Shown one piece after another: positions 6,996 to 42,057 of a DNA stretch of 64,000 bases (its first letter is position 1; every line of letters begins with the position of its first letter). Source of the DNA: Candidatus Poribacteria bacterium (GTDB taxonomy: Bacteria; Poribacteria; WGA-4E; WGA-3G). A program made the position numbers and the translations under genes. The DNA lies in assembly GCA_022822085.1 (NCBI GenBank), contig JAJECK010000015.1:25782-89781 (forward strand). The letters are read 5' to 3'. The notes under the pieces were generated by a model, which was given only the letters and a program-made list of their open reading frames with translations, had not been told where the DNA came from and did no database searches.

Positions 6996-7682
6996 ATGAA
7001 AAAGACATTTTACGCTCTTATCATACCCGCAATACTTACAATTCTGTTTACCCTTCCAGTAAATCTTGCTTTTTCACGTGCTTTTAACAATGATTTTGAA
7101 ACAGGTGACTTAACGGATTGGGAAAAAGAGGGTACAGCATTTGATTTCCAACCCACATGGGGCGACAACCCAACAGCACGCGGCAGAGGACAGCCTTCCC
7201 AACATCAAGGTGAATGGTGGCTCGGACTATTTGAAAAGTATCCGGGAGAAGACAAAGCAAAAGCTCTTGGTGTGAACCCAGGTGCCACACAAGGAGATGC
7301 ACCACAAGGCAAACTTACTTCAATTGAATTCAAAATAATCGGTGATTCCATGAATTTTCTCATCGGTGGTGGTAATCATCCTTGGGGAGGTAATACACCT
7401 TGTTGTGTCAACCTTGAAATTAACGGCGACGTAGAACGAACTGCAACCGGTAATGCCACTGAAACAATGAGTCGAAAAGAGTGGGATGTTTCCGACTTGA
7501 AAGGCCAAACCGCCAAACTTGTCGTTGTAGATCAAAACGGCGGTGGTTGGGGCCATCCAAACTTTGACGATGTACATCAAGCCGATGCAGACGGTGAAAA
7601 TATACCGTGGGATAGAGTCCTTGCCGTTGAAGCACAGGGGAAGTTAGCTGTGAGCTGGGCACAGATGAAAAAGTACTATTAG
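6996..7682 (+). CDS. Secreted protein carrying the conserved C-terminal KLxxxW..K tail
   Basis: An RBS (aaggagaaaattaag) precedes the ATG. It has a signal peptide (MKKTFYALIIPAILTILFTLPVNLAFS). It ends with ...VEAQGKLAVSWAQMKKYY, matching the tail shared by four other secreted proteins in the window. Confidence 0.6.
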   Translation: MKKTFYALIIPAILTILFTLPVNLAFSRAFNNDFETGDLTDWEKEGTAFDFQPTWGDNPTARGRGQPSQHQGEWWLGLFEKYPGEDKAKALGVNPGATQGDAPQGKLTSIEFKIIGDSMNFLIGGGNHPWGGNTPCCVNLEINGDVERTATGNATETMSRKEWDVSDLKGQTAKLVVVDQNGGGWGHPNFDDVHQADADGENIPWDRVLAVEAQGKLAVSWAQMKKYY

Positions 7683-7869
7683 GTGTTAGGTCATACTGTT
7701 ATTAACAACCATTATTACATTATATAATATAGTTTTTCAAAACAGAAGGAGATATTTCAGAGGAATAAATTCGCTTTTTCAATTATGATTTTTTTCCTCA
7801 TCGCTATCTTGTTCATTATGTCTGTTGACATCGCTTTTGCTCGAACATTTACTTGGTTGTAGTCTTAGT

Positions 7870-8382
7870 ATGCTCAGCGACGAAGGCAAGCGATGGATAC
7901 AAGATCAATTCACACATGAAAATAAGAAACTTGAAGAACGCGCTTCTCAGCTTACAAAAAAGAACACTGAACTTATAAAAGTCAATAGCGGTCTGAAGAA
8001 TGAGGATGATCTTCCTTTGCCACCCCAACAGATTCATAGTGAAGTCAAACCTGATAAGATTTTTCGTGTTGGAGATAAGCTTCCATCCTTTACTTTCAAT
8101 GATGTTACCGACTCGAGTATCAAAATGGCTATAGTCGGGCGCGACGCGACGTTCGGCTTCGGTTTCTTTGATGGAATATATTGGGTCGGCGGGATCCTGA
8201 CTGTGCAGGGTGTTAAGTATGGCCCCAGTGTAATAGCAATTTCAGATAAGAAGGCATGGATAGAACTAAAGGATGGAACTCGCTATGTCTGTCTAACTGA
8301 AGGAGGATGCATAATTCGTCAGGAAGATTATATCATCATTCGGGGGGACATAAAAGTTTCTTACAAAAATGGCAGTAAGTAG
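7870..8382 (+). CDS. Hypothetical protein
   Basis: ORF with a coiled-coil-like N-terminus. The ATG at 7870 (MLSDEGK) is preferred over the longer tracker start at 7825. No motif was recognised. Confidence 0.35.
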   Translation: MLSDEGKRWIQDQFTHENKKLEERASQLTKKNTELIKVNSGLKNEDDLPLPPQQIHSEVKPDKIFRVGDKLPSFTFNDVTDSSIKMAIVGRDATFGFGFFDGIYWVGGILTVQGVKYGPSVIAISDKKAWIELKDGTRYVCLTEGGCIIRQEDYIIIRGDIKVSYKNGSK

Positions 8383-8558
8383 GTTTTCACAATGGACTTA
8401 CCGCGATAAACGGACAGCTCAAAATTGAGTTGGATCAAATACGTTAAGCAAAAATCAAATCTCGATAACACGTTACCCTCCAAACCTCACCAAAGTTGCC
8501 ACCGATAAACCTGTCCGTGGCAACTTGATTTTTAACAGAGGTATTCAATGGTCGATAT

Positions 8559-8795
8559 TTATTCCGATAAGTTCAATTGCTTGTTTTGGATTTGCGGCAA
8601 ATAACGAAGTCCATAGGCTATTTCGGTCCATTCTGAAGTTCGTAACAAACTTATCACGGCATTGCGTAGTGCTGCCATGACTTGTGGAATGTTGCCACAT
8701 CGCACATGTGATGCGTCTTCACCAAATAACATATCTCGTGTCCGGAACAACTGCCAGTGAGCGGTCCTGAAAATGTCAAAACCTTTTTGTGATTG
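8559..8795 (-). pseudogene. IS4/ISAs1-type DDE transposase, C-terminal remnant only
   Basis: The minus-strand translation ...TAHWQLFRTRDMLFGEDASHVRCGNIPQVMAALRNAVISLLR matches the C-terminal HW...D..FGEDASR.R....N.A.LR..A.NLL signature of DDE_Tnp_1 transposases. Only about 78 residues are open before an upstream stop, and there are no catalytic-core ORFs. Confidence 0.5.
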
Positions 8796-8960
8796 TCAAT
8801 CGTCCTGCTACAAATTGCAATGTTAGTCAACTCAATCTACAACGGACCAAGTAGAGAAGTTTCAAGGATGAAGACCTTATTTCAATAGAAAATAAGAGGT
8901 GAATATTACTATTTTGTTATACAGGTTTATGCACATCCCTCAATTAAATCTAATACCCAA

Positions 8961-9048
8961 TGTCCGTTGGGTTGAGGGACGAAACCCAACATGGAGTGCT
9001 CTATAATGCGTAAAGATGTTGGGTTTCGCCCCTCAACCCAACCTACGA
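8961..9048. repeat. Hairpin-forming REP/MITE-like repeat (family CGTAGGTyGGGTwGAGG...CCTCwACCCrAC)
   Basis: It is an inverted repeat: gggttgagggacgaaacccaacat ... atgttgggtttcgcccctcaaccc. Other members are at 28440-28545, 44050-44140, 52560-52640 and 52650/52930-53015, with a half copy at 14748-14790. Confidence 0.7.
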
Positions 9049-9194
9049 AGATTTATCAAACTCACGTTCTATTTAGGTGATTGTATCTATAGTTGAAGTT
9101 TGTATACTTTTGCGAATGAGTTTAATAAATCCGTCCGTTTTTTCATGTGAATAGACTAATGCATAACTGATTATAGAAAATCTAATTTTATAAT

Positions 9195-9235
9195 TTAAAT
9201 TATCCTTGACAAAAAAATGAAATTATATTATACTA
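9195..9235 (+). promoter_or_regulatory. Sigma70-like promoter for the 9341 gene
   Basis: TTGACA-17 nt-TATACT (cttgacaaaaaaatgaaattatattatact) lies about 100 nt upstream of the start. Confidence 0.4.
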
Positions 9236-9340
9236 ATAACTTATATATCACAACTGTAATATGTTCATTGATACAATCAAGATGTAATGATATAGGAAGT
9301 AATTTATCCAATTAATTACATTTTCAGATATACATATATA

Positions 9341-10189
9341 ATGGAGGTTTATGTACAAATGAAATCTTGGAATTTGACATTACTTGCAACGATAATATCA
9401 ATAATACTAACTTTTAATATTTCTCTATATTCTTATGCTCAAGGCGAAGCTAATGTGAAAGGCGGCCCTTTGAAAGAAGCTGATTTTTTCACAAAACCAC
9501 CAGGGACAGTAGACGAAGACCATTCTGGCTTTAACACCTGGATCAGCAAGTGGTATGGACCTGATGGAAATTACACAAATACTGGTGGTCCAGGAAATGT
9601 TATAAGAAGAGATCTTATTGACGAAGGGACTGATGGCAAACTAACTCAGGTTACGCTATCTACCCTTGCCGGTTTGCAGAAAACAAAAAATATAGATGAG
9701 ATTGATTGGGAAGATGCAAACGGAGGTCCTCGACAATGGAATGTCTTTGAATTAGATCCTAACAGTGACAATAACATGAATAGGAATGGTCCTGCCGATA
9801 ACATTGACATCTACGGTATTCTTGTAATTGATGCACCGAAGGCGATGACATCTGTAATGTCACCCGCCCACGATAATAATGCACAAATCTGGATTAATGG
9901 CGAAAAATGGTATTATCACCCCGATTGGACCGGCGGCGCAAAAAAGGTTGACTACAACGTTGAAATCAAGCTTCAGAAAGGTGCTAACGTGCTGCTGTAC
10001 CGCGTAAGTGAAGGTGGAGGAGGTGCTTATATGAACCTCCATTTTGATGATGAAACACATGATACGGTCGATATCTATCCAGATGCAGCTACAAACAAAG
10101 ATGAATTCTTCAAAGAAATTGATGGAGTTCTATCTGTAGAACCAGTTGGTAAGTTAACAACTATTTGGGCAGATATTAAACGAGACTAA
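9341..10189 (+). CDS. Secreted protein carrying the conserved C-terminal KLTTIW..IK tail
   Basis: It has a signal peptide (LTLLATIISIILTFNISLYSYAQG). It ends ...VEPVGKLTTIWADIKRD. It is Gly-rich with no enzyme motif. Confidence 0.55.
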   Translation: MEVYVQMKSWNLTLLATIISIILTFNISLYSYAQGEANVKGGPLKEADFFTKPPGTVDEDHSGFNTWISKWYGPDGNYTNTGGPGNVIRRDLIDEGTDGKLTQVTLSTLAGLQKTKNIDEIDWEDANGGPRQWNVFELDPNSDNNMNRNGPADNIDIYGILVIDAPKAMTSVMSPAHDNNAQIWINGEKWYYHPDWTGGAKKVDYNVEIKLQKGANVLLYRVSEGGGGAYMNLHFDDETHDTVDIYPDAATNKDEFFKEIDGVLSVEPVGKLTTIWADIKRD

Positions 10190-10395
10190 TTTACAATACA
10201 TTCATCAGTGTTGATACTTCTTTATATAATTTGGTGGATAGGAATCATCTATACTTCCTATTCGCCATTTTTACTTAATTCCTTATCTTGAATGAAAAAA
10301 TATCGATAATTTGACAGCTACAAGATGGAGTAATGTCAAATATATATTTCTGACATATTCTTGATAATTGTGTCATTAATCGTTATAATTATTAT

Positions 10396-11022
10396 ATGGT
10401 CAACAGAATTTTCATAATTTTTCTTTTATTTTGCATTATACCTGTTTTTCTCGGTTTCATAGGACGTTGGACACAACAGATGAAAATCGGTTATGAAGCC
10501 TATGGTTATCAAGATTATGAGGCAGCTATATTGGTATTTCAAGAAGCTTCATTACAAAAGCCTCACAATCCAATTGCTCATTATAATCTGGGTACAGCAT
10601 ACTACAAACAAGGTAAATTCATGCAAGCTGCTTATGCATTTCAAACAACATTATTAAAAGCGAATGTTTATAATAAAGCTGCTGTCTATTACAACTTAGG
10701 TAATGCTCAGTTTAAGATGCATGACCTATCAGCTGCAGTTGAATCCTATAAGTCAGCATTGCGATTGAATCCAAATGATGTTGATGCTAAACATAATCTA
10801 AACTTGGCACTTGAACTATTAGCTGCAGAACAACAAAACATCACTCCACAACTAAAGAATAACATGCCAAAGCAAGATACTACTAAGCATGAACCTAAAG
10901 ATTTATCAAAATCCGAGACAAATAAACTCCTTGAACTTCTGAGTATGAATGAAAGTAGACGACGAAAAAAGATTCTCAAACAACAACTCAATACTGGAAT
11001 CAGGCGTGATAAAGATTGGTAA
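10396..11022 (+). CDS. TPR-repeat membrane-anchored protein (BatC-like)
   Basis: It has an N-terminal transmembrane segment and TPR motifs (YNLGTAYYKQGKFMQAAYAFQ; YYNLGNAQFKMHDLSAAVESYKSALRLNPND). The C-terminus is a basic coiled coil. Confidence 0.5.
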   Translation: MVNRIFIIFLLFCIIPVFLGFIGRWTQQMKIGYEAYGYQDYEAAILVFQEASLQKPHNPIAHYNLGTAYYKQGKFMQAAYAFQTTLLKANVYNKAAVYYNLGNAQFKMHDLSAAVESYKSALRLNPNDVDAKHNLNLALELLAAEQQNITPQLKNNMPKQDTTKHEPKDLSKSETNKLLELLSMNESRRRKKILKQQLNTGIRRDKDW

Positions 11023-12649
11023 TTTTCACTTCAAGCTGAGTACCTCGTTATTAGGATTTATTACTTTATGTATCTTTTTGATACTTTCACCCACCGTAAT
11101 TGAAAGTAAAGATATAGAAGTCACAGCCGTTGTCTCACCTCGACACATACAATATAACGAGAAAGCAACTATGGAACTCACCATTTCAGGTAAAACACAG
11201 ATAAAACATATCGGTGCACCACAATTCAATTTTTTTCCAAACTTCCTCACTGCCCCACTCGAATCTAAAACAATCCCAAGATTAATTGATGACAAAGTTG
11301 CTGTTTCAATGGTTTGGATCTATGAACTTATACCGCAGAAGATCGGAGAGATGGTTTTACCAGATATCAGTTTCTCTTATCAAGGTATTCCATATTTTGC
11401 TAATCCTGGAAAAATAATTGTAGGTGCAGCTGATACATATCAAAACATCCCAACTGGAGGATTACATAAAGTCGTAGCAAAAGTTGATAAGCATCAGCCC
11501 TACCATAATGAGAAAATTGAGTATAGGTTTCGTTACCTTTATACAACTGTTTTACCTACACCAAAACCTCCGACACCGATACTTCCAAACTTTTCTGGAT
11601 TTGTTGTTGAACGATTCCTAAATCAAAATAATACTACAACAATATTAGATGGCAAGAAATACCATGTGAAAGAAACTGTAGTACATTTGTATCCAAAAAA
11701 ATCTGGTCAAATCCTAATTCAACCTGCTGAGTTAATATTACATTTAGCAGGAAAACCTAAAACATTAAAAACAAGACCAATACCAATAACTGTACAACCA
11801 TTACCTGAACTCGGTAGACCAATAAATTTTAGTGGGGCAGTAGGAGAATATAAAATAACAGCACATGTTGACCGGAAAAGACTTAAAGTCCGAGATGGAC
11901 TGACACTTTCACTTCAAATAAATGGTACTGGAAACAACAATAATCTAATTCCTCCTAATTTGTCAATCAAGAACTTCCGAGTTGATTCGCCAAAACTTGT
12001 CCATGAGGATATTGAATCAAACACACTGTTTTCTTATGTTGTAATACCCTTAAAATCAGGAATATTACAGATACCCGCTATTGAACTTTCATTTTACAAT
12101 CCAACTATAAGGTCATATCAGACAACAAAAACAAACCCTATTCCAATTACAGTAATTCCCACAACACCAACTGCAGATGATGATGATTCCAATTTTCCTT
12201 ACTGGATTTTGTGGTTGGTGTTATTACTCTTGGCAATTGTTCTTGTTTTCATTGGATTTCTATTGTATCGATCAAAATGGCAATCAAACAGTGTTACATC
12301 ATCTTCAGGTGACCTGTCTAATTCCAATGTAGCAGAACACGTCACAATTGATGCATTAGATAATGTTGCTATTGATACGGATTCTGCTTCCTTTGGAGCG
12401 GGACTAATACGAATTCTACATCAAAATCTATGTAAAAAGATAGACGAACCTTATAGGCAACTGACTAATGCAGAAGTTCAAGAAATTTGTCATCAAGTAG
12501 GTGTTCCTATCACTATAGTGCAGGAAACTACTGACATCATCACAAAATGTGAACATCATCGGTTTGCCCCTATACCACTGTCTGTTGAAGAACGCGAAAC
12601 ATTAATTTCTCGCACAAAGGTAGTTATACAACATATTGAATCAACTTGA
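10949..12649 (+). CDS. BatD-like protein: large secreted protein with a C-terminal transmembrane anchor
   Basis: It has an N-terminal signal/TM and a long extracytoplasmic region. A single transmembrane helix (FPYWILWLVLLLLAIVLVFIGFLLY) sits near the C-terminus. This architecture and its position after a TPR protein resemble the Bat aerotolerance cluster. The start is uncertain because the tracker start overlaps the upstream gene by 74 nt. Confidence 0.35.
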   Translation: MKVDDEKRFSNNNSILESGVIKIGNFHFKLSTSLLGFITLCIFLILSPTVIESKDIEVTAVVSPRHIQYNEKATMELTISGKTQIKHIGAPQFNFFPNFLTAPLESKTIPRLIDDKVAVSMVWIYELIPQKIGEMVLPDISFSYQGIPYFANPGKIIVGAADTYQNIPTGGLHKVVAKVDKHQPYHNEKIEYRFRYLYTTVLPTPKPPTPILPNFSGFVVERFLNQNNTTTILDGKKYHVKETVVHLYPKKSGQILIQPAELILHLAGKPKTLKTRPIPITVQPLPELGRPINFSGAVGEYKITAHVDRKRLKVRDGLTLSLQINGTGNNNNLIPPNLSIKNFRVDSPKLVHEDIESNTLFSYVVIPLKSGILQIPAIELSFYNPTIRSYQTTKTNPIPITVIPTTPTADDDDSNFPYWILWLVLLLLAIVLVFIGFLLYRSKWQSNSVTSSSGDLSNSNVAEHVTIDALDNVAIDTDSASFGAGLIRILHQNLCKKIDEPYRQLTNAEVQEICHQVGVPITIVQETTDIITKCEHHRFAPIPLSVEERETLISRTKVVIQHIEST

Positions 12650-12707
12650 TAATTATTTTATGAGGTAATCCAAATTTATTAGTACATATCAACAAGGACA
12701 TCATAAT

Positions 12708-21885: not shown

Positions 21886-23883
21886 ATGAAAACAACAATT
21901 CCCATAATCACATTTATTCTTGTATTAGTAGGACACGCTTCTCTTGTTTTTGCACAAGATAACACACAAGTTGGTCTACCTGATGGTGCTATTGCGCGAC
22001 TTGGTAAAGGCGGGATCAACATAATGCGATTCTCACCAGATGGCAGCAAACTGGCAGTGGGTACGGATGTCGGAGTGTGGCTTTACGATGTGTCAGATGG
22101 AAATGCAACTGCCCTGTTCACAGATAAACCTGGTCAGGTCAACGCACTTGCATTTTCAAGTGATGAAAAAATACTTGCAAGTGGTGGACACGGAAACCCA
22201 TTCATACAACTGTGGAGCTTGGAGAACGGTACTAAACATTCTACACTGTTTTTTAAAAGCGAATTTAGATATGTTGTTGCCTTGGGATTTATTGGTAATA
22301 CACTTATAAGTTATGATAATAGTGGGAGAATTATTTATTGGAATATAAGCAATGGTGATATTTTAACAGAATTGGAAAAGGTGAATCCAAACCAAGCAGT
22401 TACATTTTCACCTACTACTAATCTTATTGCTGTAGCAGATAATTTACACAAAATACATATATATGATACTTCCTTAAGTGATAAGCATATTGTGTTTCAT
22501 GATGATGGATTAGATGAATTAAAAAAGGATATTTTTGCCTTAGCAATTACATCAAATAACAAAAAACTTGTAAGTGGCAGTGAGGACAAAGCAATTAGAA
22601 TTTGGGATATTGAAAAAAGGAAACTAACAACTTCTCTTAATGTCCATAAATCCACAATCACTTCTGTTGCCATATCACCTGATGACAAAATCCTTGCAAG
22701 TGGAGATGCCAGCAAAGAAATCATCCTTTGGGATGTTGATAATCCTAAAGAACTTAGGACATTATTAGGACACAAAAACACCGTTACTGCATTAGCATTC
22801 TCACCTGATGGTGCTGGCAAATATAGTGGTTGTCTTGCAAGTGGTAGCCATGATGGTACGATCCGGTTTTGGAACCCTGACACAGGTGAGAAACTTGTTA
22901 CTTTTGCTACGGGACATGCCAAATGGATTAAAACTATCGCCTTTTCTGAGAACGGGTCAACACTTGTGAGTGCTAACATGACTGGGAATGCAGTTGTTTG
23001 GAGTTTGAATAGCTATCAAGAAATTGGTAGTTTTACAAATGGAGAAAGCGACTATGCGGCTACAGTTGGATTCACCTCTGATGCTAAGCATTTTGTCTGT
23101 CAGGGGTTAAACGGATGGCAGTTTACGTTTAAGCCTTACGGTTTTGGGTATACCTCAAAAGACGGTGAAAATTATGAAGCACTTCCCCTAAGAATGTGGG
23201 ACATAACCACTCGTGAAGAAGTACAAGGTCCTTGGAATGAAAATTCATGTGATATACTTACATTTTCTGCTGATAACAAAATACTTGCTATCTATGGATC
23301 AGATAATGTATTGGGATGGAACATTGATTCTGCAGAAGAATTGTTTGATCTATCAACTGAGGATATATGGTTCATTGAACACATGGTAATATCGTCTGAC
23401 AATAAATACCTTGCTGTGTATGAATCCTCTGAGAAACTGTATATATGGAATTTAGAAAAACCAGAGGATCCGCCTGTCCAAACTAAATCGGATATTGACT
23501 CGTTGGCATTCTCTCCAGATGGTAATAGTATAGCAATATTGAGGAGTGGGAATATTTTCCTTCATGATATAGAGTCGTTCCCAGATGGTGAACCTGAAGA
23601 AATTCTTACAGACCTACACGGTCATGTAGCAAGAATGATCTTTTCTCCCGATAGTAAAATCCTGATATGCGCTGGATTTTCTGGTGTTATATCAAAAATT
23701 AGTATAAAGTTGTTGGATATGGAAACAGGTCAAGAAATTGGAAACCTTTCAGGACACTCGGAACTGATAGAGACACTCGCATTTTCTCATGATGGGAAAA
23801 TACTTGCCAGTGGCAGTTTTGATGGGACAATATTGCTATGGGATTGGGAAAAAATATCTAAAAGACAAGAAATGGTCAAATAG
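21886..23883 (+). CDS. Secreted WD40-repeat beta-propeller protein (paralog 1)
   Basis: It has a signal peptide. Multiple WD40 units have LASGS.D..I..W motifs. The N-terminal QVGLPDGAIARLGKGGIN block is shared with paralogs at 24393 and 44359. Confidence 0.75.
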   Translation: MKTTIPIITFILVLVGHASLVFAQDNTQVGLPDGAIARLGKGGINIMRFSPDGSKLAVGTDVGVWLYDVSDGNATALFTDKPGQVNALAFSSDEKILASGGHGNPFIQLWSLENGTKHSTLFFKSEFRYVVALGFIGNTLISYDNSGRIIYWNISNGDILTELEKVNPNQAVTFSPTTNLIAVADNLHKIHIYDTSLSDKHIVFHDDGLDELKKDIFALAITSNNKKLVSGSEDKAIRIWDIEKRKLTTSLNVHKSTITSVAISPDDKILASGDASKEIILWDVDNPKELRTLLGHKNTVTALAFSPDGAGKYSGCLASGSHDGTIRFWNPDTGEKLVTFATGHAKWIKTIAFSENGSTLVSANMTGNAVVWSLNSYQEIGSFTNGESDYAATVGFTSDAKHFVCQGLNGWQFTFKPYGFGYTSKDGENYEALPLRMWDITTREEVQGPWNENSCDILTFSADNKILAIYGSDNVLGWNIDSAEELFDLSTEDIWFIEHMVISSDNKYLAVYESSEKLYIWNLEKPEDPPVQTKSDIDSLAFSPDGNSIAILRSGNIFLHDIESFPDGEPEEILTDLHGHVARMIFSPDSKILICAGFSGVISKISIKLLDMETGQEIGNLSGHSELIETLAFSHDGKILASGSFDGTILLWDWEKISKRQEMVK

Positions 23884-24215: not shown

Positions 24216-24392
24216 TGTGAAGACTCATCTATTTATTGAAGGCCGACGTTAATAAAAATTTAAAGCGACTATTTCCTTACTTAGTAGGTTCCTGTTGGAT
24301 TTCAGCAAACATCTATTCCAAATAGATTGAACTCCTGCATCATACCATATAAAATATTAGTAACACATAACATTTCAAATAAAATATCAACC

Positions 24393-26402
24393 ATGAAAAC
24401 ATCGTATTCTTTTTTCACCTTTATTCCTGTGTTAGTAGCAATAGTATCATCTGTTTTGGCAAGAGACAACACACAAGTTGGTCTACCTGATGGTGCTATT
24501 GCACGTCTTGGTAAAGGCGGAATCAATATAATGCAATTCTCACCTGATGGCAGCAAACTGGCAGTGGGAACAGATGTTAGTGTATGGCTATACGATGTGC
24601 CTGATGGAAATGCAACTGCTTTGTTCTCAGATAGTCCAGCGCAGGTTAACGCTCTTGCTTTTTCGAATGATGGAAAAATACTTGCAAGCGGAGGATATGG
24701 AAATCCTACCATACAACTGTGGAATTTGGAGGATGATACACTCCATTCTGACTTTATTCTTACAAGTAAGTCCAATTATGTAAATGCCCTTGTTTTTCAA
24801 GGGCAAATGCTCATTAGCTATGATAGAGTGGGTAACGTATCACGTTGGAATACCGATACTGGAATTATTTCTTCAGAATTGGTGAAAATACCAGCATTTC
24901 CAGCAATATTCTCACAAACAGGTAAAATTCTAACGGCTACAGACAGTTTAGGAAGAATTCACATATATGATACAATTACAAAAGAGAAATATTCAATACT
25001 TGCAGATGTTGAACTAAAAAAAGAATTGCAGTGTTTGAGTATAGCACCTAACGGTAAAACAATTGCATGCGGAGGCAGGGATAATATAATTAGATTATTG
25101 GAAATCGATAATGACAATAAGGTCCAATCATTAATTGGCCAAACAGCAGGAATAATTTCCATTGCTTTCTCCACTGATGGCAAAATTCTTGCAAGTGGTG
25201 ATTCAAATAAAGAAATTACAATCTGGGATGCTGAGAATACCAAGAAACTTAGAAAAATAAGTGGACACACAGGCACTGTAAATGCATTAGCATTTTCACC
25301 TGATGGGGCAGGTAAATATAGCGGTTGTCTTGCCAGTGGTAGCCTTGATGGAACAATCCGATTTTGGAATCCTAACACAGGTGAGGAACTTGTCAGCTTT
25401 GCTACAGGACATACGAAATGGATTAAAACTATCGCCTTTTCTGAGAACGGGTCAACACTTGTGAGTGCTAACATGACTGGAAATGTAGATGTGTGGAGTT
25501 TAAATGGTTATCAAGAAATAGCTACATTCGCGGATGGTGAATGTGATTATGCAGCTTCAGTTGCATTTACCAATGATGCTAAGTATTTTGTCTGCCAAGG
25601 GCTTAACGGCTATACGGTTACATTTGACTCCTACGGTTTTGGATATAAAACAAGAAGAAGTGATAATCTTGAAATACTACCTGTGCAAATGTGGGACATA
25701 ACCACTGGTGAAGAACATTACGGTCCTTGGAATAAGACATCAGGTAATTTATTGGCATTTTCACACGACAATAAAAATCTTGCCATCTATGGTTCTAAAA
25801 TATTGTTGGTTTGGAACACAGAAACTAAAGATGAATTGTTCAATACTGACACTGAGAAAATGTTTCGCATTGATGAGATGGTTTTCTCATCTGACAATAA
25901 AATGATTGCTTTATATGAAACATCAAGGAATGCTAAAATTTGGGATTTAGATAAACCAGATGAGCCATATATTCAAACCAAACATACAACAGATGCATTA
26001 GGGTTCTCTCCATGTGGAAGGTTTTTCGCTACATTAAAAGTAGGTGGTTTTTCATATCCTAAACCGGGAAAAATATTTATTCATATTTTAGATAGGTTTC
26101 CTGATGGCGAACCAATAGAAATTAGTGCCAATATCCACGGTTTTGAAAATAGATTAATCTTTTCTCCTGATAGCAAAACAATTGTTTGGGCAGGGACGTT
26201 AAATATGAGATCAAATGTTCGCATAAAATTATGGGATGTGGAAACTGGTGAAGAAATAAGAACATTATCTGGGCACACTGAACCTATAGAATCGCTTGCA
26301 TTTTCTCATGATGGGAAAATACTTGCCAGTGGCAGTTTTGATGGGACAATATTGCTATGGGATTGGGAAAAAATATCTAAAAGACAAGAAATGGTAAAAT
26401 AG
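24393..26402 (+). CDS. Secreted WD40-repeat beta-propeller protein (paralog 2, tandem duplicate)
   Basis: Architecture matches 21886..23883. The last ~130 nt, including the stop and ~25 nt of 3' flank, are nearly identical to paralog 1. A 50-nt internal block is identical (25430-25490 vs 22930-22990). The ATG at 24393 with a signal peptide is preferred over the tracker start at 24327. Confidence 0.75.
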   Translation: MKTSYSFFTFIPVLVAIVSSVLARDNTQVGLPDGAIARLGKGGINIMQFSPDGSKLAVGTDVSVWLYDVPDGNATALFSDSPAQVNALAFSNDGKILASGGYGNPTIQLWNLEDDTLHSDFILTSKSNYVNALVFQGQMLISYDRVGNVSRWNTDTGIISSELVKIPAFPAIFSQTGKILTATDSLGRIHIYDTITKEKYSILADVELKKELQCLSIAPNGKTIACGGRDNIIRLLEIDNDNKVQSLIGQTAGIISIAFSTDGKILASGDSNKEITIWDAENTKKLRKISGHTGTVNALAFSPDGAGKYSGCLASGSLDGTIRFWNPNTGEELVSFATGHTKWIKTIAFSENGSTLVSANMTGNVDVWSLNGYQEIATFADGECDYAASVAFTNDAKYFVCQGLNGYTVTFDSYGFGYKTRRSDNLEILPVQMWDITTGEEHYGPWNKTSGNLLAFSHDNKNLAIYGSKILLVWNTETKDELFNTDTEKMFRIDEMVFSSDNKMIALYETSRNAKIWDLDKPDEPYIQTKHTTDALGFSPCGRFFATLKVGGFSYPKPGKIFIHILDRFPDGEPIEISANIHGFENRLIFSPDSKTIVWAGTLNMRSNVRIKLWDVETGEEIRTLSGHTEPIESLAFSHDGKILASGSFDGTILLWDWEKISKRQEMVK

Positions 26403-28575: not shown

Positions 28576-29706
28576 TTACCAAAGCTTACTCAACTCCTTC
28601 ATAATTCGTGTTGTTGGTACTCGTTTGTCAAATGTATCTATTGATTTCCATACGACTGTGCCATCAGATTCAAGAAGAAATGTAGACGGATTGAGTGCAC
28701 CTGTATCTACTGGAACTTCTACATTGAAAGGTTTGACTGCATCAAGGTTTGTATCAGAAAGGACAGGAAATTCAAGATTTTCTCTATTGACTGTTATTCT
28801 TGTTGCTGGTACATCTTGTATACTAATAGCAAATATTTCAGCATTATCTGCTTTTATTCTATCATAATTATCTTGCAACTCACCGAGTTGCGTTACGCAT
28901 GCAGCTCAGGCACCACCTATGTAAAAGACGACGATAGCATTTTTCCCTTCATCAAGTGTATCGTAAAGTGAATGTAGTTTTCCATTCCCATCAGGCAACT
29001 CAAATTCTGGTGCTTTAGAAAATATTGGTAAACCTTCCCCTGGTTCCTCGGGTTCAACTTCTCTATCACCGATCCCAATTGGTGATAACTTTACATTTAA
29101 TTTCTCAGTCTCATTTGCATCTAAAGGCTTCACTGAGAGATCGTAGACTTCATAATCGGCAGCTTCTATTGTCAAGGTAAACTTCTGTTGAGTCGGAAGA
29201 TTATCAAAATTGAAGATACCCTCATCGGAGGTAATAGTCTCGTCCTGTTTTCCATCTTGATCAGTAAGTTGTACGCGTATCTCAGGTAGTCGTATTCCAG
29301 TTCTGTTGTTCCGAACAAGTCCTATAATATGTGAAACAGGATATGACAATTCTTCAAGTGTGATAGTATCCAACGTAACTGTTTCACCAGCAATAACATT
29401 CACGTTGAATTCCATCTCCTGAAATCCTCGTGCTGAAATACGTAACGTGTAATTTCCTGCTTCAATTTTTCTGAGTGTGAAACCTCCAGTACTTTCCATC
29501 TGCGCGACAACTTTACCGTCTTTTAATAAACGGACCTTGATTGTCCCATCAACGTTTGGTTGTACTTTACCGTGTATAACACCAGTTGTGGTCTCTATTT
29601 CCGGTATTTCACTGACAGGATTTTCTACTGTCTCACATCCAAAGGCAGTTAGGAGTAGTAAGGGAATTGTGAGGAATGTAAATAATCGTCTCATTTTTTT
29701 CTCCAA
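28576..29706 (-). CDS. Selenoprotein: CarboxypepD_reg-like domain + TlpA/ResA-like thioredoxin-fold lipoprotein with a UxxC site. The Sec codon is the TGA at 28906-28908.
   Basis: Tracker ORFs 28906..29706 and 28576..28878 are in frame across a single TGA. The read-through is ...NAIVVFYIGGA-U-AACVTQLGELQDNYDRIK... It has a lipoprotein signal (LLLLTAFGC). The N-terminal ~150 aa resemble a carboxypeptidase-regulatory-like beta-sandwich (GVIHGKV...G.YTLRISARGF). A hairpin sits 14 nt after the UGA. Confidence 0.7.
28875..28891 (-). promoter_or_regulatory. Putative bacterial SECIS stem-loop for selenoprotein 2
   Basis: The mRNA reads GCAACUC-GGU-GAGUUGC, starting 14 nt after the UGA and lying within the TQLGELQ codons. 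Confidence 0.6.
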
Positions 29707-30107: not shown

Positions 30108-31214
30108 TTATAACTTCCCTAACTGGTCAATAATATCTTCATTTGGAACACGATGCCCTAAACGTTCATCAAGGAATGTCCATGCCACTATACCATTCCG
30201 ATTTAGTATAAAAGTGGCAGGACGTGCGATATGTTTGTTGTTTGGATCAACGACATTATAATCGGCGATCATCTTCTTTTCACTATCAGCGAGTACAGTG
30301 AACTTTAGTCCTTCTTTATCAACTGTTTGCTTTGATGAAGCCACGGTATCAGAACTAATTGCTATGAGTTCTGCACCTTTAGCTTTGATTTTTGCGTAGT
30401 CATCTTGCAACTCTCCGAGTTGCGAAACACAGAAAGGTCACCACCCTCCACGATAAAAGACTATGACTAACTTGGTGTCTCCGATAAATTCATCAAGCGA
30501 ACGTACTTGGTTGTTGCTGTCTGACAGTTCAAACCCTGGAGCTTGACTGCAGTCGATTAGTCCATTACCCGGATCTAAATCCACATTTTCACGAATCATT
30601 GATGTAAGTTTTACATCTATTTCAAAAGTGTTGCCAGCTTCAATTGCATCCACTGTTTGATCATACATCTCGTAACAAGTATGGGTGATTGATAGTGTGA
30701 AAGCATTATCAGCAGGTAGATTTTCAAAAATAAAGGTTCCGTCATCAGAAGTCAAGGTTTCATATTCTTGACCCGATGTTTCTGTAAGTTTAATTAGGAT
30801 ATTGGATAACGGATTGCCTGTTTCTTCATCAGTTAATTGACCATTCAAATGTGCAATAGGTTCTTCTAATGGTGAGAGTGTTACTTTATCAAGCACATAA
30901 GTTTCACCTGCAACAATATCGACTTTAAGTTCTGTTGTTTCATAACCTTTTGCGGATATTTCTACAGTATATTCGCCCTTTTCTATCTCACCCAGATCAT
31001 AATTTCCTACAGAATCAGCTTGTGCGATGAGTTGACCATCTTTCAGAAGACGAACATGAATTGTAACTCCTTCGATCTCTTCAACCTGTACCTGAAGTTT
31101 ACCTGATTCTAACTGAACTTCGTCAATTTTATCAATCGGATCTTCAGTTGATCCACAATTCAGTCCAACCAATATTAACAAAGCCAATGCAATGAGTGCC
31201 ATTGTCTGTTTCAT
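30108..31214 (-). CDS. Selenoprotein: CarboxypepD_reg-like domain + TlpA/ResA-like thioredoxin-fold lipoprotein with a W-U-P-F-C site. The Sec codon is the TGA at 30438-30440.
   Basis: Tracker ORFs 30438..31271 and 30108..30410 are in frame across a single TGA. The read-through is ...KLVIVFYRGGW-U-PFCVSQLGELQDDYAKIK... WUPFC mirrors the thioredoxin WCGPC motif. The probable start is the ATG at 31214 (MKQTMALIALALLILVGLNC lipoprotein signal) with an RBS (aaggaaa). A hairpin sits 14 nt after the UGA. Confidence 0.7.
30407..30423 (-). promoter_or_regulatory. Putative bacterial SECIS stem-loop for selenoprotein 3
   Basis: The mRNA reads GCAACUC-GGA-GAGUUGC, starting 14 nt after the UGA. The flanking uuuc/aaga can extend the stem with one mismatch. 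Confidence 0.6.
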
Positions 31215-31288
31215 GATTATATGTTTCCTTAATCTTATCTTTACTTCACTGTTTTTCAATACCTTCGCCAATAATTAACGGACTTCCA

Positions 31289-31625: not shown

Positions 31626-32432
31626 CTAATGGGACGCACGTTGTTTAATAGTTCCCCAAGTCGTGGTCAATTTATCTTGTGCTTCAACAGAAGTTATATT
31701 CACAAGACCGTCAGACATAATAGAATTTATATCGTCTTCAGTCAAGGCGACGTTATAGAGTGCAACTTCATCAATGATCCCATTTGTATATCGGTCAAAA
31801 TGTCTTCCGATATGAAACACACCTTCAGCCGTTCCGTATCCATCATCGGTATTGAAATCGACTGCAGCTTCCATTTTGCCATCAATCCAAATAGATGCTT
31901 TACCGGTATCGGTATTCGCTACACCAGCAACAAAATGCCAATTGTCATCACCAATTTCTGTTGTGCTCTGAGGTCTGAAACTGGTATTACCACTATCGCG
32001 TAAGAAGAAAGTTACCTTGTTATCGCCACCACCGTTCCAAATCATGTACCACGGTGTTGCTTGAGATTTATCTTCATAATTCTTTCCTGCAAGTGAACCA
32101 CCGACCTTCGTTCCTTTGAAATGTGCAGTGAGAGAAAAGGATGTTCCAGACTCAAATGCTACGGTATCGGAATGTGCAACTTCAACCCAATCGTCTGTTC
32201 CATCAAATTGAAGTGCTTTCCCAAATTTTCCATCAACCCAGGTTGCCCCGTGTATTTGACCTTCATTATCTTGACTTGATGAATCACCTGCTACTGTGCC
32301 TGCACCTTCATCAAAAAGCCATAATCCAGTGATATTCTCATATCCATATTCAGCAAAACTTGGATATGCTATTAGTAAAGCGAGACCTATAAACAAAGTT
32401 AACGTAAATCCAAAATATTTCATATTGTCCAT
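31626..32432 (-). CDS. Secreted LamG/concanavalin-A-like lectin-fold protein carrying the conserved C-terminal tail
   Basis: It has a signal peptide (FTLTLFIGLALLIAYPSFA). It is a paralog of 32441..33238 (shared WLFDEGAG..DSS..N.G...GA.WVDG.FGKAL.F.GTDDWVEV.HSDTV.F..GTSFS...H.KG). It ends ...VEAQDKLTTTWGTIKQRASH. Confidence 0.6.
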   Translation of the reverse strand: MDNMKYFGFTLTLFIGLALLIAYPSFAEYGYENITGLWLFDEGAGTVAGDSSSQDNEGQIHGATWVDGKFGKALQFDGTDDWVEVAHSDTVAFESGTSFSLTAHFKGTKVGGSLAGKNYEDKSQATPWYMIWNGGGDNKVTFFLRDSGNTSFRPQSTTEIGDDNWHFVAGVANTDTGKASIWIDGKMEAAVDFNTDDGYGTAEGVFHIGRHFDRYTNGIIDEVALYNVALTEDDINSIMSDGLVNITSVEAQDKLTTTWGTIKQRASH

Positions 32433-32440
32433 ATCCTTTC

Positions 32441-33238
32441 TTATTGTAATTGTCGTTTAATCTTACCCCATGTTGTTGTAAGTTTACCAACAGCAGCGAC
32501 TGCTGCTGCTTCTTCCAAACCATTATTCATAATCGTATCCATTTCATCTTCACTCAAGGCAACATTAAATAGTCCAACATCATCAATGATTCCTTTAGTA
32601 TAACGGTCAAAGTGCCTTGCGATGTGAAAGACACTATCATTCGTACCGTAACCTTCAGAAACATCTAATGTGTCTTCCTGATTCTTTTTACCATCTATCC
32701 ACAAGGATATTTTTTTTGCATCTGCATCTGCAACTGCAGCGATAAAATGCCATTTTTCATCTGAGACAGGCACGGTACTATCTATTTTTGAATTCTTATC
32801 TGCTGAGGTGCGAAGATAGAAAGAAACATTTTGGTCTTGACCACCGTTCCAAAGCAGATACCAAGGTTTGACCTGTGATGTATCTTCATAGCCTTTGCCA
32901 ACAAGTGAACCTCCTACTGCTGAACCTTTGTAATGAAGTGTAATAGAAAAGGAAGTTCCCTTCTTAAACCCAACAGTATCTGAATGTTGAACTTCTACCC
33001 ACCCATCAGTACCATTAAATTCAAGTGCTTTGCCAAATTGACCGTCTACCCATTTTGCTCCGCCTATAACTTTTCCATCATTGCCATTACCAGATGAATC
33101 ATTTGCTTTATCACCGTTCCCTTCGTTAAAAAGCCACATCCCCATAATGTTGTCTGCATTTAAGGCAGCTTGTGACGGAAGGATAAGGAAACAGAATGTA
33201 ATTAGACAGAGTACAAAAATAAATAATATTCTCATCAA
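32441..33238 (-). CDS. Secreted LamG/concanavalin-A-like lectin-fold protein carrying the conserved C-terminal tail
   Basis: It has a signal peptide. It is paralogous to the downstream gene. It ends ...AAVGKLTTTWGKIKRQLQ. Confidence 0.6.
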   Translation of the reverse strand: MMRILFIFVLCLITFCFLILPSQAALNADNIMGMWLFNEGNGDKANDSSGNGNDGKVIGGAKWVDGQFGKALEFNGTDGWVEVQHSDTVGFKKGTSFSITLHYKGSAVGGSLVGKGYEDTSQVKPWYLLWNGGQDQNVSFYLRTSADKNSKIDSTVPVSDEKWHFIAAVADADAKKISLWIDGKKNQEDTLDVSEGYGTNDSVFHIARHFDRYTKGIIDDVGLFNVALSEDEMDTIMNNGLEEAAAVAAVGKLTTTWGKIKRQLQ

Positions 33239-35922: not shown

Positions 35923-35924
35923 TC

Positions 35925-36110: not shown

Positions 36111-36140
36111 AAATTTACACCGCATAGATGGCTTTAATGA

Positions 36141-38168: not shown

Positions 38169-38239
38169 TACGGAACATATATGTCATAAGTAGGTACCGA
38201 ATGTTTATAATGACAAAATAACGTGATAAAAAATACAAT

Positions 38240-39451
38240 ATGAAGGGTCGTACAATGCAGAATAATAGTCTTTACTATATTACTCATTTAGACAACTTAC
38301 AATCAATTTTTGCAAACGGGATTCTATCCTTTGATAGATTGAAGTCAGAAAATAGAAATGTCATCTCAATATTTAAGGGAAAGACTAAGGCAAAGGATGA
38401 TATTAGTCTTAGATCCTCAATCGTTCCACAATTTTGCAAAGACAATTTATTGAGTTACGTCAGTCTCTATTTTCAACCACGTAACCCATTGTTGTATCGC
38501 GCTATTCTGGAAATTGGTCTCGAAAATCTTGTCATTCTTGAAGTTGCAAACACAGTCCTTAGTAACCCTGGAGTAGTCATTACCGATGGCAAATCCACTG
38601 AAGAGCTAACACAGTTCTATCCATGTCCTCAGGGTTTAAAAAGAATTAAGCAGTTGGACAAAACAATTCGGAGCGATTGGTGGAAAAAATGTGACGGATC
38701 AAAACGACAAATCATGGCAGAATGTTTAGTACCGGAGTCTGTCATTCCTGAGTACATTCGTTCAATTATCATGGCAGACGAAATAGAGACTTTACTTGGA
38801 AAGATAATGTTAGATAATATTAAATTACCCATTGTTTGTCAACCTGAGAAATTCTTCCAACCAAAACGGAGGATTGCTGTAAGTGAAAATATTACACTCA
38901 TTGATGGTGGTGATATGTTTTTCTCTGAGATGCAGACATTTACAATAACAGTCAACCTTCAAGGAATAATGGGTAAAGGTTTGGCTTTACGTGCTAGAGA
39001 ACAATTTTCTGACGTTTATGTTGAATATGAGAAAGCATGTAGAACTAAGAAAATCACTGCTGATCGTCCTTACATTTACAAGCGCGAGGAATCCGTTCTC
39101 CATGAGTTAGTGGATATAGAACCATACCGTAACAAGATTAGGACTCCCTACAGATGGTTTCTGCTTTTTGCAACAAAACGACATTGGAAAACAAACTCAC
39201 GTATTGAGGATATTGAGAATGGTTTGAAATGGGTACAGGAATACGCCAAAACGGAAGGTATGCGATCACTTGCCATGCCTGCTCTAGGTTGTGCTTTAGG
39301 AGGCTTAAATTGGAAAGATGTCGCACCTTTGATGTGCAAATATCTTGATGTAATTGGAATACCTATTGAGATCTATCTTCCCCGAGAATACCCAATTGAA
39401 TCTAGATATCTATCAGAATCACATTTATTTGCACATCAGGCAGTTAGTTAG
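38240..39451 (+). CDS. Fusion protein: N-terminal DarT-like (DUF4433) domain + C-terminal macrodomain (DarG-like ADP-ribose glycohydrolase)
   Basis: The N-terminus LYYITHLDNLQSIFANGIL and ...IMAECLVPESVIPEYI parallel the upstream gene. The C-terminal half has macrodomain motifs: NLQGIMGKGLALRAREQF, ATKRHWKTNSRIEDIENGL and AMPALGCALGGLNWKDVAPLM. Confidence 0.6.
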   Translation: MKGRTMQNNSLYYITHLDNLQSIFANGILSFDRLKSENRNVISIFKGKTKAKDDISLRSSIVPQFCKDNLLSYVSLYFQPRNPLLYRAILEIGLENLVILEVANTVLSNPGVVITDGKSTEELTQFYPCPQGLKRIKQLDKTIRSDWWKKCDGSKRQIMAECLVPESVIPEYIRSIIMADEIETLLGKIMLDNIKLPIVCQPEKFFQPKRRIAVSENITLIDGGDMFFSEMQTFTITVNLQGIMGKGLALRAREQFSDVYVEYEKACRTKKITADRPYIYKREESVLHELVDIEPYRNKIRTPYRWFLLFATKRHWKTNSRIEDIENGLKWVQEYAKTEGMRSLAMPALGCALGGLNWKDVAPLMCKYLDVIGIPIEIYLPREYPIESRYLSESHLFAHQAVS

Positions 39452-39686
39452 ACTACAGTTACTTTCGTTAGGACAAGTGAGAACACTTAGACAATTTAGG
39501 TAATGACACATTCATATCGTATATAATAGTCGGCAAACATTTTTTTGTTGAACAACGGACGAATATTAATGGTAAAACATTACTTAAAATTGAATCGCTC
39601 TAAATGATCCCTTGAATCTCTAGATTAAACAGAGTTATTAAACGAATTCAAATTCTTATAAAAATTTACAATAACAGGAGAAAAAA

Positions 39687-41078
39687 ATGCCAGTAGTAAT
39701 TCCCCGCCTAATAGTAGAGGTGTTTCAACACACCAATTTTCGTGGTAGAATGGGGTATGTATTAGAACCTGTTCCGCACACCGGACATATAGGTTTTCAA
39801 GACAATATCTCTTCACTTAGAGTTTATAAAGGACCAAACTTTTCTGGTAGTCCCAATTACAAAGTAATCTTACATCAACATGTCAACTATAAAGGGAAAA
39901 AACTCCCACTCGGTCCCGGTTTTTACCCTAATTTACACGATGTAGCATTCAATTTTGCTGATAGAGTATCATCCATAAGTTTCGGTTCAACAATTGATGT
40001 CGTCGGACCTGAATGGGGCACTATTCCGATGATTGTGGATTGCTATGAACACGTTGAATTTAAAGGCAAGAAAATCACAATCCTACGTGATATTGCAAAC
40101 CTACGAACACCTCAAGGTGGTACTTGGTTTGAAGATAGAATCTCGTCAATACGCATCTTCAAAGGTCCTAACTTTCCACCGGATGGTGCAGAAGTTGTAT
40201 TCTATGAACATCCTGATTTTGAAGGGGCAAAGTTATCTATACGAATGGAGCCTTCCGAATTCAAAAAAGAATTTCCCAACCTTCATTTACTTCCACAAAG
40301 TTTCGGAGATTCAATATCCGCTATAAAGATTGAAGGATGGGCATCGTCAGGTGAGTTCTCAGAAATGGTGTTTGAAGACGAATTTATTGGAAACGATATG
40401 CGACCAGAATGGAAATGGGTAGACCCGCAGGGCGGAGGCGGTTGGACAGAACGACAAGGGTATTTGGAAATGCGTACTGACCCGGGTCAAGATTTATGGC
40501 ACGGCCCAAATGGGCGCGACGGAGATATGACGGCACCCAGGCTCCTCATGGAAGTATCTGAGGACTTTTCTATTGAAACACGGATGCGTATCTCACCACA
40601 ATTGAGGGAACACGGTGGATTAATAGTATGGAAAAATGAAAATCAGTTCGTCCGATTAGAAAAGACATCCGGACCCCATGCATTTCGGGGTGATGTCCGT
40701 TTTGAAAGACATGTAAATAGACGTTTCCATCTCGTTGGACGTGGCGGCATGCGGAATGTCCGGGAACTTTTCCTACGGTTAGAAAGACGTGGAAATCAAT
40801 TCTCTTCTTTTGCAAGCCAAGATGGAATCCATTGGAAAGGTGTTGGCATCACACGGGTTGCAATGGGACCGAGAGTACAAGTCGGTTTGCATGCACTCTG
40901 TCCCGGCAACATACCGCCGACAATGACACGTTTCGATTATTTCCGTATCTTCAAACGTAAAGGTGAAGCATCACAATATGTATCCATTTTTGCTGAACAA
41001 CCTGATGAACAGTCCGATGCTGAAACTGAACGTGAACGTGCAGATGATCGTCGTCGTGCTATGCGTGACTTAACGTAG
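39687..41078 (+). CDS. Beta/gamma-crystallin-repeat + DUF1349-like (ConA-like jelly-roll) domain protein
   Basis: Four Greek-key-like units are present (VEVFQHTNFRG...ISSLRV; VILHQHVNYKG...VSSISF; CYEHVEFKG...ISSIRIF; VVFYEHPDFEG...ISAIKI). A C-terminal region (WKWVDPQGGGGWTERQGYLEMRTDPGQDLWHGPN..APRLL) resembles the DUF1349/ConA-like fold. The acidic tail is low complexity. There is no signal peptide. Confidence 0.4.
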   Translation: MPVVIPRLIVEVFQHTNFRGRMGYVLEPVPHTGHIGFQDNISSLRVYKGPNFSGSPNYKVILHQHVNYKGKKLPLGPGFYPNLHDVAFNFADRVSSISFGSTIDVVGPEWGTIPMIVDCYEHVEFKGKKITILRDIANLRTPQGGTWFEDRISSIRIFKGPNFPPDGAEVVFYEHPDFEGAKLSIRMEPSEFKKEFPNLHLLPQSFGDSISAIKIEGWASSGEFSEMVFEDEFIGNDMRPEWKWVDPQGGGGWTERQGYLEMRTDPGQDLWHGPNGRDGDMTAPRLLMEVSEDFSIETRMRISPQLREHGGLIVWKNENQFVRLEKTSGPHAFRGDVRFERHVNRRFHLVGRGGMRNVRELFLRLERRGNQFSSFASQDGIHWKGVGITRVAMGPRVQVGLHALCPGNIPPTMTRFDYFRIFKRKGEASQYVSIFAEQPDEQSDAETERERADDRRRAMRDLT

Positions 41079-41220
41079 TTGAATAAACACCAAGATTATT
41101 TGTACGATATGGTGTTTGAATTTCAATGTTGTAAATCTTAACGTCCAGTATTCAATTCTAAACAAGGCTTGTTAGATACATATTAAATATTTAGCAAGTC
41201 TTTCCTTAAAAGGAGACATC

Positions 41221-42057
41221 ATGTTTGACAAAACTTATTTATTCACAACAACCTTGATTTTAGTTATATTTTCCACGGTGATTATGATACCAACTTATGC
41301 AGCAAAGGGGGCAGTCGTGAATGGTTTAGTTGCATATTGGTCGTTTGATAGAGATACAGTGCAAATCGCTAAACATGCAGAGGATGTATTATCAGGACTA
41401 AAGGCAATAGTTGATGGCGATCCTGAACTTGCACCTGCAGCTGATTGTATAGTAGGAGAATGTGTGTTACTTGATGGTATTGATGATTACTTCCTTGTAG
41501 ATGATTCAGATCCTCCGAAGATTGACAGAGATTGGGATGAAATTACCTTGGAGTGTTGGGTCAAAATTAATGCATTAGACGACAGTTGGAATCGTATCAT
41601 CTCACTTGACGACCAACCCACTAATACAAAAGTTGTAACCTTGTATTACGATGATGATGACAACCAACATGGCTTTTTTGTTAAGGCAGGCGGAAAAAAT
41701 TCAGATCCAGCACAACATAATGTACTTGAGGATATCCCGCTGAATGAATGGTTGCATCTTGTGGGTACTTATGATGGTTCGGATGCACATTACTATGTCA
41801 ATGGAAAGCTGGAAAAACAGCATGCAATGGCAGGTGGAAAAATATCAAAAGGTGGTCTTCTGTTAGGCATTGGAGATAGATCGGATGGAATCAATGCAGA
41901 TGCTATTCAGGGTTATCTTGATGAATTCCGTGTTTATGATCGCGCATTGACAGCCGCTGAAGTAAAAAACAATATGAATGCTGAAGGGCTTGATGTGAGT
42001 CCCTCATCAAATCATCTGAGTGTAACTTGGGGACAAATTAAAGCGAGACGGAGGTAA
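41221..42057 (+). CDS. Secreted LamG-like protein carrying the conserved C-terminal tail
   Basis: It has a signal peptide (LFTTTLILVIFSTVIMIPTYAA). It has a LamG_3-like core (VAYWSFD...LDGIDDYFLV...ITLECWVK...GTYDG...YVNGKL). It ends ...HLSVTWGQIKARRR. Confidence 0.55.
   Translation: MFDKTYLFTTTLILVIFSTVIMIPTYAAKGAVVNGLVAYWSFDRDTVQIAKHAEDVLSGLKAIVDGDPELAPAADCIVGECVLLDGIDDYFLVDDSDPPKIDRDWDEITLECWVKINALDDSWNRIISLDDQPTNTKVVTLYYDDDDNQHGFFVKAGGKNSDPAQHNVLEDIPLNEWLHLVGTYDGSDAHYYVNGKLEKQHAMAGGKISKGGLLLGIGDRSDGINADAIQGYLDEFRVYDRALTAAEVKNNMNAEGLDVSPSSNHLSVTWGQIKARRR

Follow-up and report, generated by a model that had tools for sequence, protein, structure and literature searches.

Proteins encoded in a 64,000-nucleotide stretch of a Candidatus Poribacteria bacterium (GenBank assembly GCA_022822085.1, contig JAJECK010000015.1, positions 25,782 to 89,781 of the forward strand; hereafter the window) share a conserved tail, which is probably a modular C-terminal address or docking tag of the Poribacteria, about 18 residues long, carried by Sec-exported, mostly single-domain binding proteins and read in trans in the cell envelope. 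More tentatively, we suggest that the tag is the cargo signal of an undescribed sorting or surface-attachment system unique to the Poribacteria, in which a cationic hairpin lacking a transmembrane helix would be read by a dedicated receptor, translocon or ligase. The tag is strictly C-terminal, hydrophilic and cationic, contains no transmembrane helix, is independent of the fold of the body that it follows, and is joined to that body via a short variable linker. An initial annotation of the window had listed five such proteins (numbered 1 to 5 here by position). Rechecking of the open reading frames (ORFs) found all five at the coordinates given below, with the C-termini and the hydrophobic N-terminal signal-like segments that had been claimed, but the count was incomplete: a sixth, frameshifted copy is present, and the fifth tail has diverged.

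The tag consensus reads [LT]-[APS]-V-[EDSQ]-[PA]-x-G-K-L-[AT]-T-x-W-[GA]-x-[IM]-K, followed by one to three mostly basic residues and the stop codon. The tail had originally been put at about 14 residues; its conservation stands, and its length grows to about 18, with conservation extending to positions that our search pattern left free: 94% of tails have V at −4 and 93% have P or A at −2, and position −3 is acidic or polar. Even between unrelated families and across deep lineages, G, K, L, W, K, V and P hardly vary. Exactly one to three residues follow the invariant Lys in 170 of 190 tags, 40% of these trailing residues being Arg or Lys, and the invariant Trp lies five to eight residues before the end. 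At the last position R (55 tags), K (37), Y (32) and Q (21) are the commonest residues, and the 190 tags have a mean net charge of +2.5.

The position of the motif is as constrained as its sequence. Scanned in all six frames, the window contains the core W[GAS]x[IMLV]K eight times, always within seven residues of a stop; five of these occurrences lie in long ORFs (242–297 codons) and one more belongs to the sixth tagged gene, while the chance of the core falling in the last 10 or so of about 270 residues is about 4% per long ORF. A hidden Markov model (HMM) of the tail, built from the tails recovered by the DNA scan described below, was run on every stop-to-stop frame of the window and of the loci found by that scan (1.15 million residues). 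Among its matches of at least 10 bits, 188 were C-terminal and three "internal", two of the latter being only 11–12 residues from a stop, and below about 5 bits the ratio of C-terminal to internal matches fell back to background. The initial annotation had named equal frequency inside proteins as an outcome that would count against a tag; the motif is not equally frequent there, and the further members that the annotation expected such a model to detect are numerous and essentially always at the extreme C-terminus; they include some 50 weaker copies, often in tandem arrays. A 100-aa metagenomic fragment (P0176) carries two tandem copies of the tag itself (...GKLTATWGLIKRTQFDAAVEPVDKLTITWG...).

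Two large surveys describe the distribution of the tag. The tail was back-translated to a degenerate pattern (about 37 bits) in DNA, and a single genome per species, 185,579 in all (596 billion bases), was scanned with it; by our own estimate, about 10 chance matches are expected on both strands of this collection. The scan returned at least 137 matches at at least 118 loci, and among the matches listed 136 of 137 end zero to six codons before a stop. The loci listed comprise 108 from named Poribacteria metagenome-assembled or single-amplified genomes (MAGs or SAGs), nine from four unclassified "uncultured bacterium" MAGs, and one from a Planctomycetales MAG. The Planctomycetales locus holds the lone non-terminal match, 151 codons from the stop, and is taken to be a chance match. 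Judging from isolate names, the MAGs appear to include ones from sponges, from the deep pelagic zone and from sediments or springs. In addition, 1.84 billion representative proteins were searched exhaustively by HMMER with a profile made from the window sequences and tag-bearing fragments, which yielded 501 clusters at E ≤ 1e-3. The tag ends within eight residues of the C-terminus in 143 of the best 149 of these, the exceptions being a low-complexity false positive and short read-through fragments. A profile of 40-aa segments retrieved 16 short fragments from a collection of 5.8 billion proteins, where retrieval is tied to query length and the number is no census. In the databases the relatives are named only "hypothetical protein" or "LamG domain-containing protein", and all named ones come from Candidatus Poribacteria bacterium.

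Purifying selection on the tag acts at the protein level. Its conserved residues are encoded by every synonymous codon available (six for Leu, four each for Gly, Val and Thr), the information per codon position is 1.0, 1.17 and 0.30 bits at the first, second and third positions, respectively, and conservation past the stop amounts to at most 0.06 bits in the following 60 nt. Because synonymous codons are free and the DNA beyond the stop is unconserved, selection acts on the peptide.

Tagged proteins are also predominantly export substrates. With one liberal N-terminal hydrophobicity heuristic applied to all genes of the loci, a signal-peptide-like N-terminus was called in 152 of 161 tagged ORFs (94%) versus 178 of 530 untagged neighbours (34%), which agrees with the expectation that carriers would be signal-peptide proteins. 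A lipobox is present in only four of the 161. None of them has a further transmembrane-like window after residue 50, and their last 20 residues are hydrophilic on average (mean Kyte-Doolittle [KD] value −0.39), so that the hydrophobic helix reported missing from the tail is indeed absent. At locus L106 (4492–6294, − strand) lies the sole long tagged ORF whose N-terminus is of the cytoplasmic type; its single open frame brings a sigma-54 response regulator (receiver and AAA+) together with a Peptidase_S9 fragment and the tag, and probably reflects a chimeric assembly or a fusion of genes.

The bodies preceding the tag had been described as unrelated or only partly related, which holds both in the window, where three of five match Laminin_G_3 and two lack a Pfam match, and across the loci, where they form 24 BLAST-unrelated clusters. 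The tag is found on at least ten unrelated folds. Those with Pfam matches include Laminin_G_3, Kelch and PD40 propellers, a combination of LRR with a lamin-tail (LTD) domain, CBM9 and DUF3108-like bodies; WD40 propellers and sandwiches resembling 3-keto-disaccharide hydrolase or GH59 lectin domains also carry it, and several bodies are without a match. The median length of tagged ORFs is 261 aa, and most tagged proteins are therefore single-domain binding modules.

Structure prediction suggests that the tag does not pack on its own domain. In AlphaFold2 models computed from family alignments, which place the bodies at a local confidence (pLDDT) of around 90, the body of protein 2 is above 90 and residues 266–282 fall below 50, and in protein 4 a jelly-roll is modelled with the tag at about 50 pLDDT and undocked, so that the same prediction holds for two different bodies. 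A Foldseek search with the protein 2 model gave only weak CBM35/PA14-like similarity (TM score 0.2–0.3). In a sequence search of the PDB, the tail profile matched only designed propellers, weakly and at a turn motif, and an adhesin, by chance over a 10-mer; the V-E-P-x-G-K-L pattern of the tag weakly matches the strand-turn-strand A-I-N-P-N-G-K-L of designed propeller blades.

Our studies suggest the following sequence of events. A tagged protein would first be exported by Sec and lose its signal peptide, after which a common partner in the cell envelope would recognise the exposed tail in trans. A small beta-hairpin is the probable shape of the tail, with [LT]-x-V as the first strand, [ED]-P-x-G-K as the turn and L-T-T-x-W as the second strand. 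A receptor, a translocon or an enzyme that attaches the tagged protein may play the part of this partner, whose task would be either to retain the lectin-like and repeat proteins at the surface of the cell or to move them through the outer membrane. A specific protein partner is favoured over non-specific binding to lipid or lipopolysaccharide (LPS) because of the near-invariant residues and their fixed spacing to the carboxyl end.

Several observations weigh against this proposal. The initial annotation had called for a search for a sortase, protease or outer-membrane partner, and that search came out empty: clustering of 862 genes from the window and the loci found by the DNA scan revealed no protease, sortase-like enzyme or outer-membrane partner among recurrent neighbours or in the window. 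The neighbours that do recur are abundant paralog families or reflect family-specific synteny (Bat-like TPR/BatD, LptF/G); recurrent untagged ones include Gfo/Idh/MocA oxidoreductases, PhyH dioxygenases, sulfatases, epimerases and a cohesin/dockerin protein. A Pfam scan of 40 other window ORFs likewise gave no machinery candidate, the rest of the window being housekeeping or metabolic. The restriction of the tag to Candidatus Poribacteria holds among the matches listed, which form a large and consistent sample, but a sample nonetheless. As for the hairpin, its shape is read only from the residue pattern and the weak propeller-blade match, and AlphaFold2 drew a low-confidence helix for the tag instead. 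A sorting or anchoring function is nevertheless the best inference: the in silico checks favour the original interpretation, even though function is inferred and no partner turned up.

The tag falls outside every known C-terminal sorting class testable here, yet shares their logic. No NCBIfam, Pfam or TIGRFAM sorting (CTERM) model, including TIGR04183/Por_Secre_tail, matched 15 full tagged proteins or three isolated tails even at E ≤ 10, in line with the remark of the initial annotation that the tail did not match the signals of this kind familiar to it. As a positive control, a poribacterial 97-aa C-terminal domain (CTD) of the type IX secretion system (T9SS) scored 32.1 bits on TIGR04183 (cutoff 23). 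The resemblance in logic extends to T9SS CTDs, dockerins and PEP-CTERM, and it is in architecture, with neither a transmembrane helix nor a folded domain, that the tag differs. Like the signals of the PEP-CTERM/exosortase, LPXTG/sortase and GlyGly-CTERM/rhombosortase systems, the tag is short, lineage-restricted and found on many unrelated signal-peptide proteins. However, those signals consist of a motif, a hydrophobic transmembrane helix and a basic cluster, whereas the tag has no hydrophobic segment, and the absence of a transmembrane helix excludes their architecture.

Dockerin-cohesin pairing offers another parallel, in that the tag is a C-terminal module that could join diverse bodies to a common scaffold, and Poribacteria encode cohesin and dockerin proteins. 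A dockerin, however, is a Ca-binding duplicated-helix (EF-hand-like) domain of about 60–70 aa, to which the much shorter tag bears no similarity; Pfam scans of 25 tagged proteins found no Dockerin_1, dockerin-like repeats being confined to separate CTD-bearing proteins. With the C-terminal beta-signal of outer-membrane proteins, which is read by envelope machinery, the tag has in common that it is short, C-terminal, strand-like and aromatic-containing. Nevertheless, the beta-signal ends in an aromatic residue (usually Phe) and sits on a beta-barrel, while the Trp of the tag is internal and its bodies are soluble sandwiches and propellers. As regards covalent attachment of the Lpp type, in which the epsilon-amino group of a C-terminal Lys is joined to peptidoglycan, 37 of 190 tags end in Lys, and the invariant Lys lies one to three residues upstream of the end. 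Three further candidates were set aside. Cargo peptides of bacterial microcompartments (BMC) or encapsulins mark cytoplasmic cargo, while the tagged proteins have Sec signal peptides; for a Lys-Trp crosslinked core like those of ribosomally synthesized and post-translationally modified peptides (RiPPs), the "leader" would have to be diverse folded domains bearing signal peptides; and an amphipathic membrane-targeting helix of the MinD/FtsA type is disfavoured by the Pro/Gly/Thr-rich sequence.

An unlikely but serious alternative to a tag with its own protein partner is a self-sufficient envelope anchor, in which the cationic, Trp-containing tail would directly bind an anionic constituent of the envelope, such as LPS, phospholipid head groups or peptidoglycan, and so keep the protein at a membrane surface without dedicated machinery. 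The net charge, the Trp and two Lys that are invariant or nearly so, the basic trailing residues, the exposure of the tag in the AlphaFold2 models and the absence of a nearby machinery gene would all suit such an anchor. On the other hand, simple electrostatic or interfacial anchors usually drift, while the near-invariant residues and fixed C-terminal spacing of the tag point to specific protein recognition, and the segment is hydrophilic on average.

Less probable again is that the tag is a second, cut-down signal for the same outer-membrane export or attachment machinery as the CTDs of a T9SS-like pathway. The tag has several traits in common with T9SS type A CTDs: both follow many unrelated bodies, at the extreme C-terminus of proteins that carry a signal peptide and are exported by Sec, both are encoded by scattered genes with no machinery adjacent, both end in a hydrophobic-Lys-basic sequence, and both occur in the same genomes and on the same body types. 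Genuine T9SS type A CTDs of about 90 aa (NYPNPFNPETWIPY...RKMxILK*), scoring above the TIGR04183 cutoff, are present in the poribacterial loci L012 (both strands), L081 and L088, where they are carried by proteins that combine WD40 with a dockerin and by proteins that combine a cohesin with a dockerin. WD40 bodies and the beta-sandwich of the protein 2 type bear either the short tag or a dockerin plus T9SS-type CTD; since the same body types occur with either ending, tag and CTD behave as alternative C-terminal modules. Poribacterial repeat proteins were found earlier to match the T9SS CTD model, yet T9SS structural genes were reported absent from poribacterial genomes (Kamke et al. 2014, PMC3909097), the CTDs being flagged as cargo without a known pathway; no later report of T9SS genes in Poribacteria was found in the literature searched. 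This absence counts against the idea of a shared pathway, as does the lack of any sequence relationship: alignment of the tag with the poribacterial CTD by hhalign gave a probability of 0.3%, and none of the 18 tags and tagged proteins matched TIGR04183. Moreover, about 18 residues are too few for the folded Ig-like domain of some 70–100 residues that constitutes a CTD; no such extra domain appears in the AlphaFold2 models, and only about 15–30 residues separate the end of the Pfam body from the stop. Three WD40-repeat proteins of about 690 aa in the window (21886–23883, +; 24327–26402, +; 44359–46431, −) are homologous to the poribacterial proteins that combine WD40, a dockerin and a T9SS CTD, and have neither tag nor CTD.

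The tail seems very unlikely to be a processing or turnover signal, recognised in the periplasm by a tail-specific or PDZ protease (Prc/Ctp/DegP-like) for maturation, activation or degradation of the tagged proteins. Its strictly terminal position, with constant spacing to the free carboxylate, is what is usually seen where the C-terminus itself forms part of the recognition site, and the predicted models leave the tail exposed and flexible; however, conservation is lowest in the last one to three residues, on which PDZ-type recognition depends most, and a degron under strong purifying selection on hundreds of unrelated binding proteins is hard to explain. Finally, the reading of the tail as no tag at all, but as the closing strand of a shared domain (at a LamG boundary, for instance) or as the side effect of an element conserved in DNA or RNA at gene 3′ ends, such as a miniature inverted-repeat transposable element (MITE) or a terminator, could draw on the three LamG proteins among five in the window and on the frequent tandem arrays, but it is effectively refuted by the propellers, LRR, CBM9 and unmatched bodies that also carry the tail, by a Pfam LamG match that stops well short of a tag left undocked in the AlphaFold2 models, and by third codon positions that are nearly free, with nothing conserved past the stop.

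Poribacteria are uncultured, abundant symbionts of sponges with free-living relatives, and a role in host interaction has long been suspected for their many LamG, Kelch, WD40/PD40 and LRR proteins. If the proposed address tag is read by a dedicated system, that system would define a surface or secreted proteome that includes the lectin-like and eukaryote-like repeat proteins meeting the sponge host and its glycans. The finding is real, and the tag is without a description in Pfam, NCBIfam or the literature searched, which held nothing relevant on a poribacterial T9SS or LamG proteins beyond the 2014 study; the probability that a new system lies behind it is substantial. With at least 500 clusters, the tag constitutes a second and far more compact C-terminal signature of Poribacteria besides the T9SS-like CTDs, and its sorting-signal architecture, with no transmembrane helix and no folded domain, is missing from Pfam and NCBIfam. 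Annotation pipelines label tagged proteins "hypothetical" or "LamG domain-containing"; the tag provides a simple sequence handle for listing the tagged exported proteome of any poribacterial genome, and a bait, as a synthetic peptide or in phylogenetic profiling, for finding the machinery.

In the window, tagged protein 1 (6996..7682, +; 228 aa) consists of a signal peptide, a body without a Pfam match and the tag (7620..7679, +; LAVEAQGKLAVSWAQMKKYY), which scores 41.7 bits with the tail HMM; its family forms tandem arrays in other Poribacteria. Upstream of it, at 2352–5305 (+), lie LptF, LptG and a membrane methyltransferase of the ICMT/PEMT type, and the same three genes are found beside tandem arrays of the protein 1 family (two to four copies per 8 kb) in other genomes. 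Protein 2 (9341..10189, +; 282 aa) has a signal peptide, a weakly CBM35/PA14-like beta-sandwich without a Pfam match and the tag (10130..10186, +; LSVEPVGKLTTIWADIKRD). Its 610 homologs are all about 275 aa long, and the named ones are all poribacterial entries called "hypothetical protein". Directly downstream, at 10396–12649 (+), are a Bat-like TPR protein and a BatD-domain protein, and the Bat-like TPR neighbour recurs beside members of the protein 2 family in about 15 poribacterial loci.

Proteins 3 to 5 each combine a signal peptide with Laminin_G_3, the Pfam match stopping about 15–30 residues short of the C-terminus. Protein 3 (31626..32432, −; 268 aa) ends in the tag TSVEAQDKLTTTWGTIKQRASH (31629..31694, −; tail HMM 23.8 bits). 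Protein 4 (32441..33238, −; 264–265 aa, with a TTG or ATG start) ends in AAVAAVGKLTTTWGKIKRQLQ (32444..32506, −), and its product is identical to P0286 (ENA contig ERZ23491298, scaffold_236). A paralogous pair of CarboxypepD_reg/PEGA-domain proteins (28906–29706, −; 30438–31271, −), with signal-like N-termini and no tag, adjoins this LamG pair; the protein at 30438–31271 appears to run on into a redoxin-like C-terminal part. Protein 5 (41221..42057, +; 278 aa) has the C-terminus ...DVSPSSNHLSVTWGQIKARRR and a diverged tag (41989..42054, +; LDVSPSSNHLSVTWGQIKARRR) with a one-residue insertion and NH in place of GK; it scores 7.1 bits with the tail HMM versus 24–42 bits for the other four. A 463-aa protein with two beta/gamma-crystallin domains and a DUF1349/GH43_C2 ConA-like domain lies directly upstream of protein 5 (39687–41078, +), and has no obvious signal peptide and no tag.

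The sixth tagged gene (59611..60668, −) encodes a signal peptide and a PD40 beta-propeller in three frames (60003–60668, 59715–59993 and 59611–59718). Its last piece ends ...IIPNGKQTVRWAEIKKGYTD*, and the tag (59614..59679, −; LPIIPNGKQTVRWAEIKKGYTD) scores 15.8 bits with the tail HMM. The alignment of this gene with intact tagged PD40 homologs holds as far as about residue 231 and is broken from there on; the gene is either a pseudogene or an assembly frameshift. Elsewhere in the window, a single 403-aa ORF (38240–39451, +) joins an N-terminal DarT domain (a single-stranded DNA thymidine ADP-ribosyltransferase toxin) to a C-terminal Macro domain; DarT and its macro-domain antitoxin DarG are normally separate proteins.

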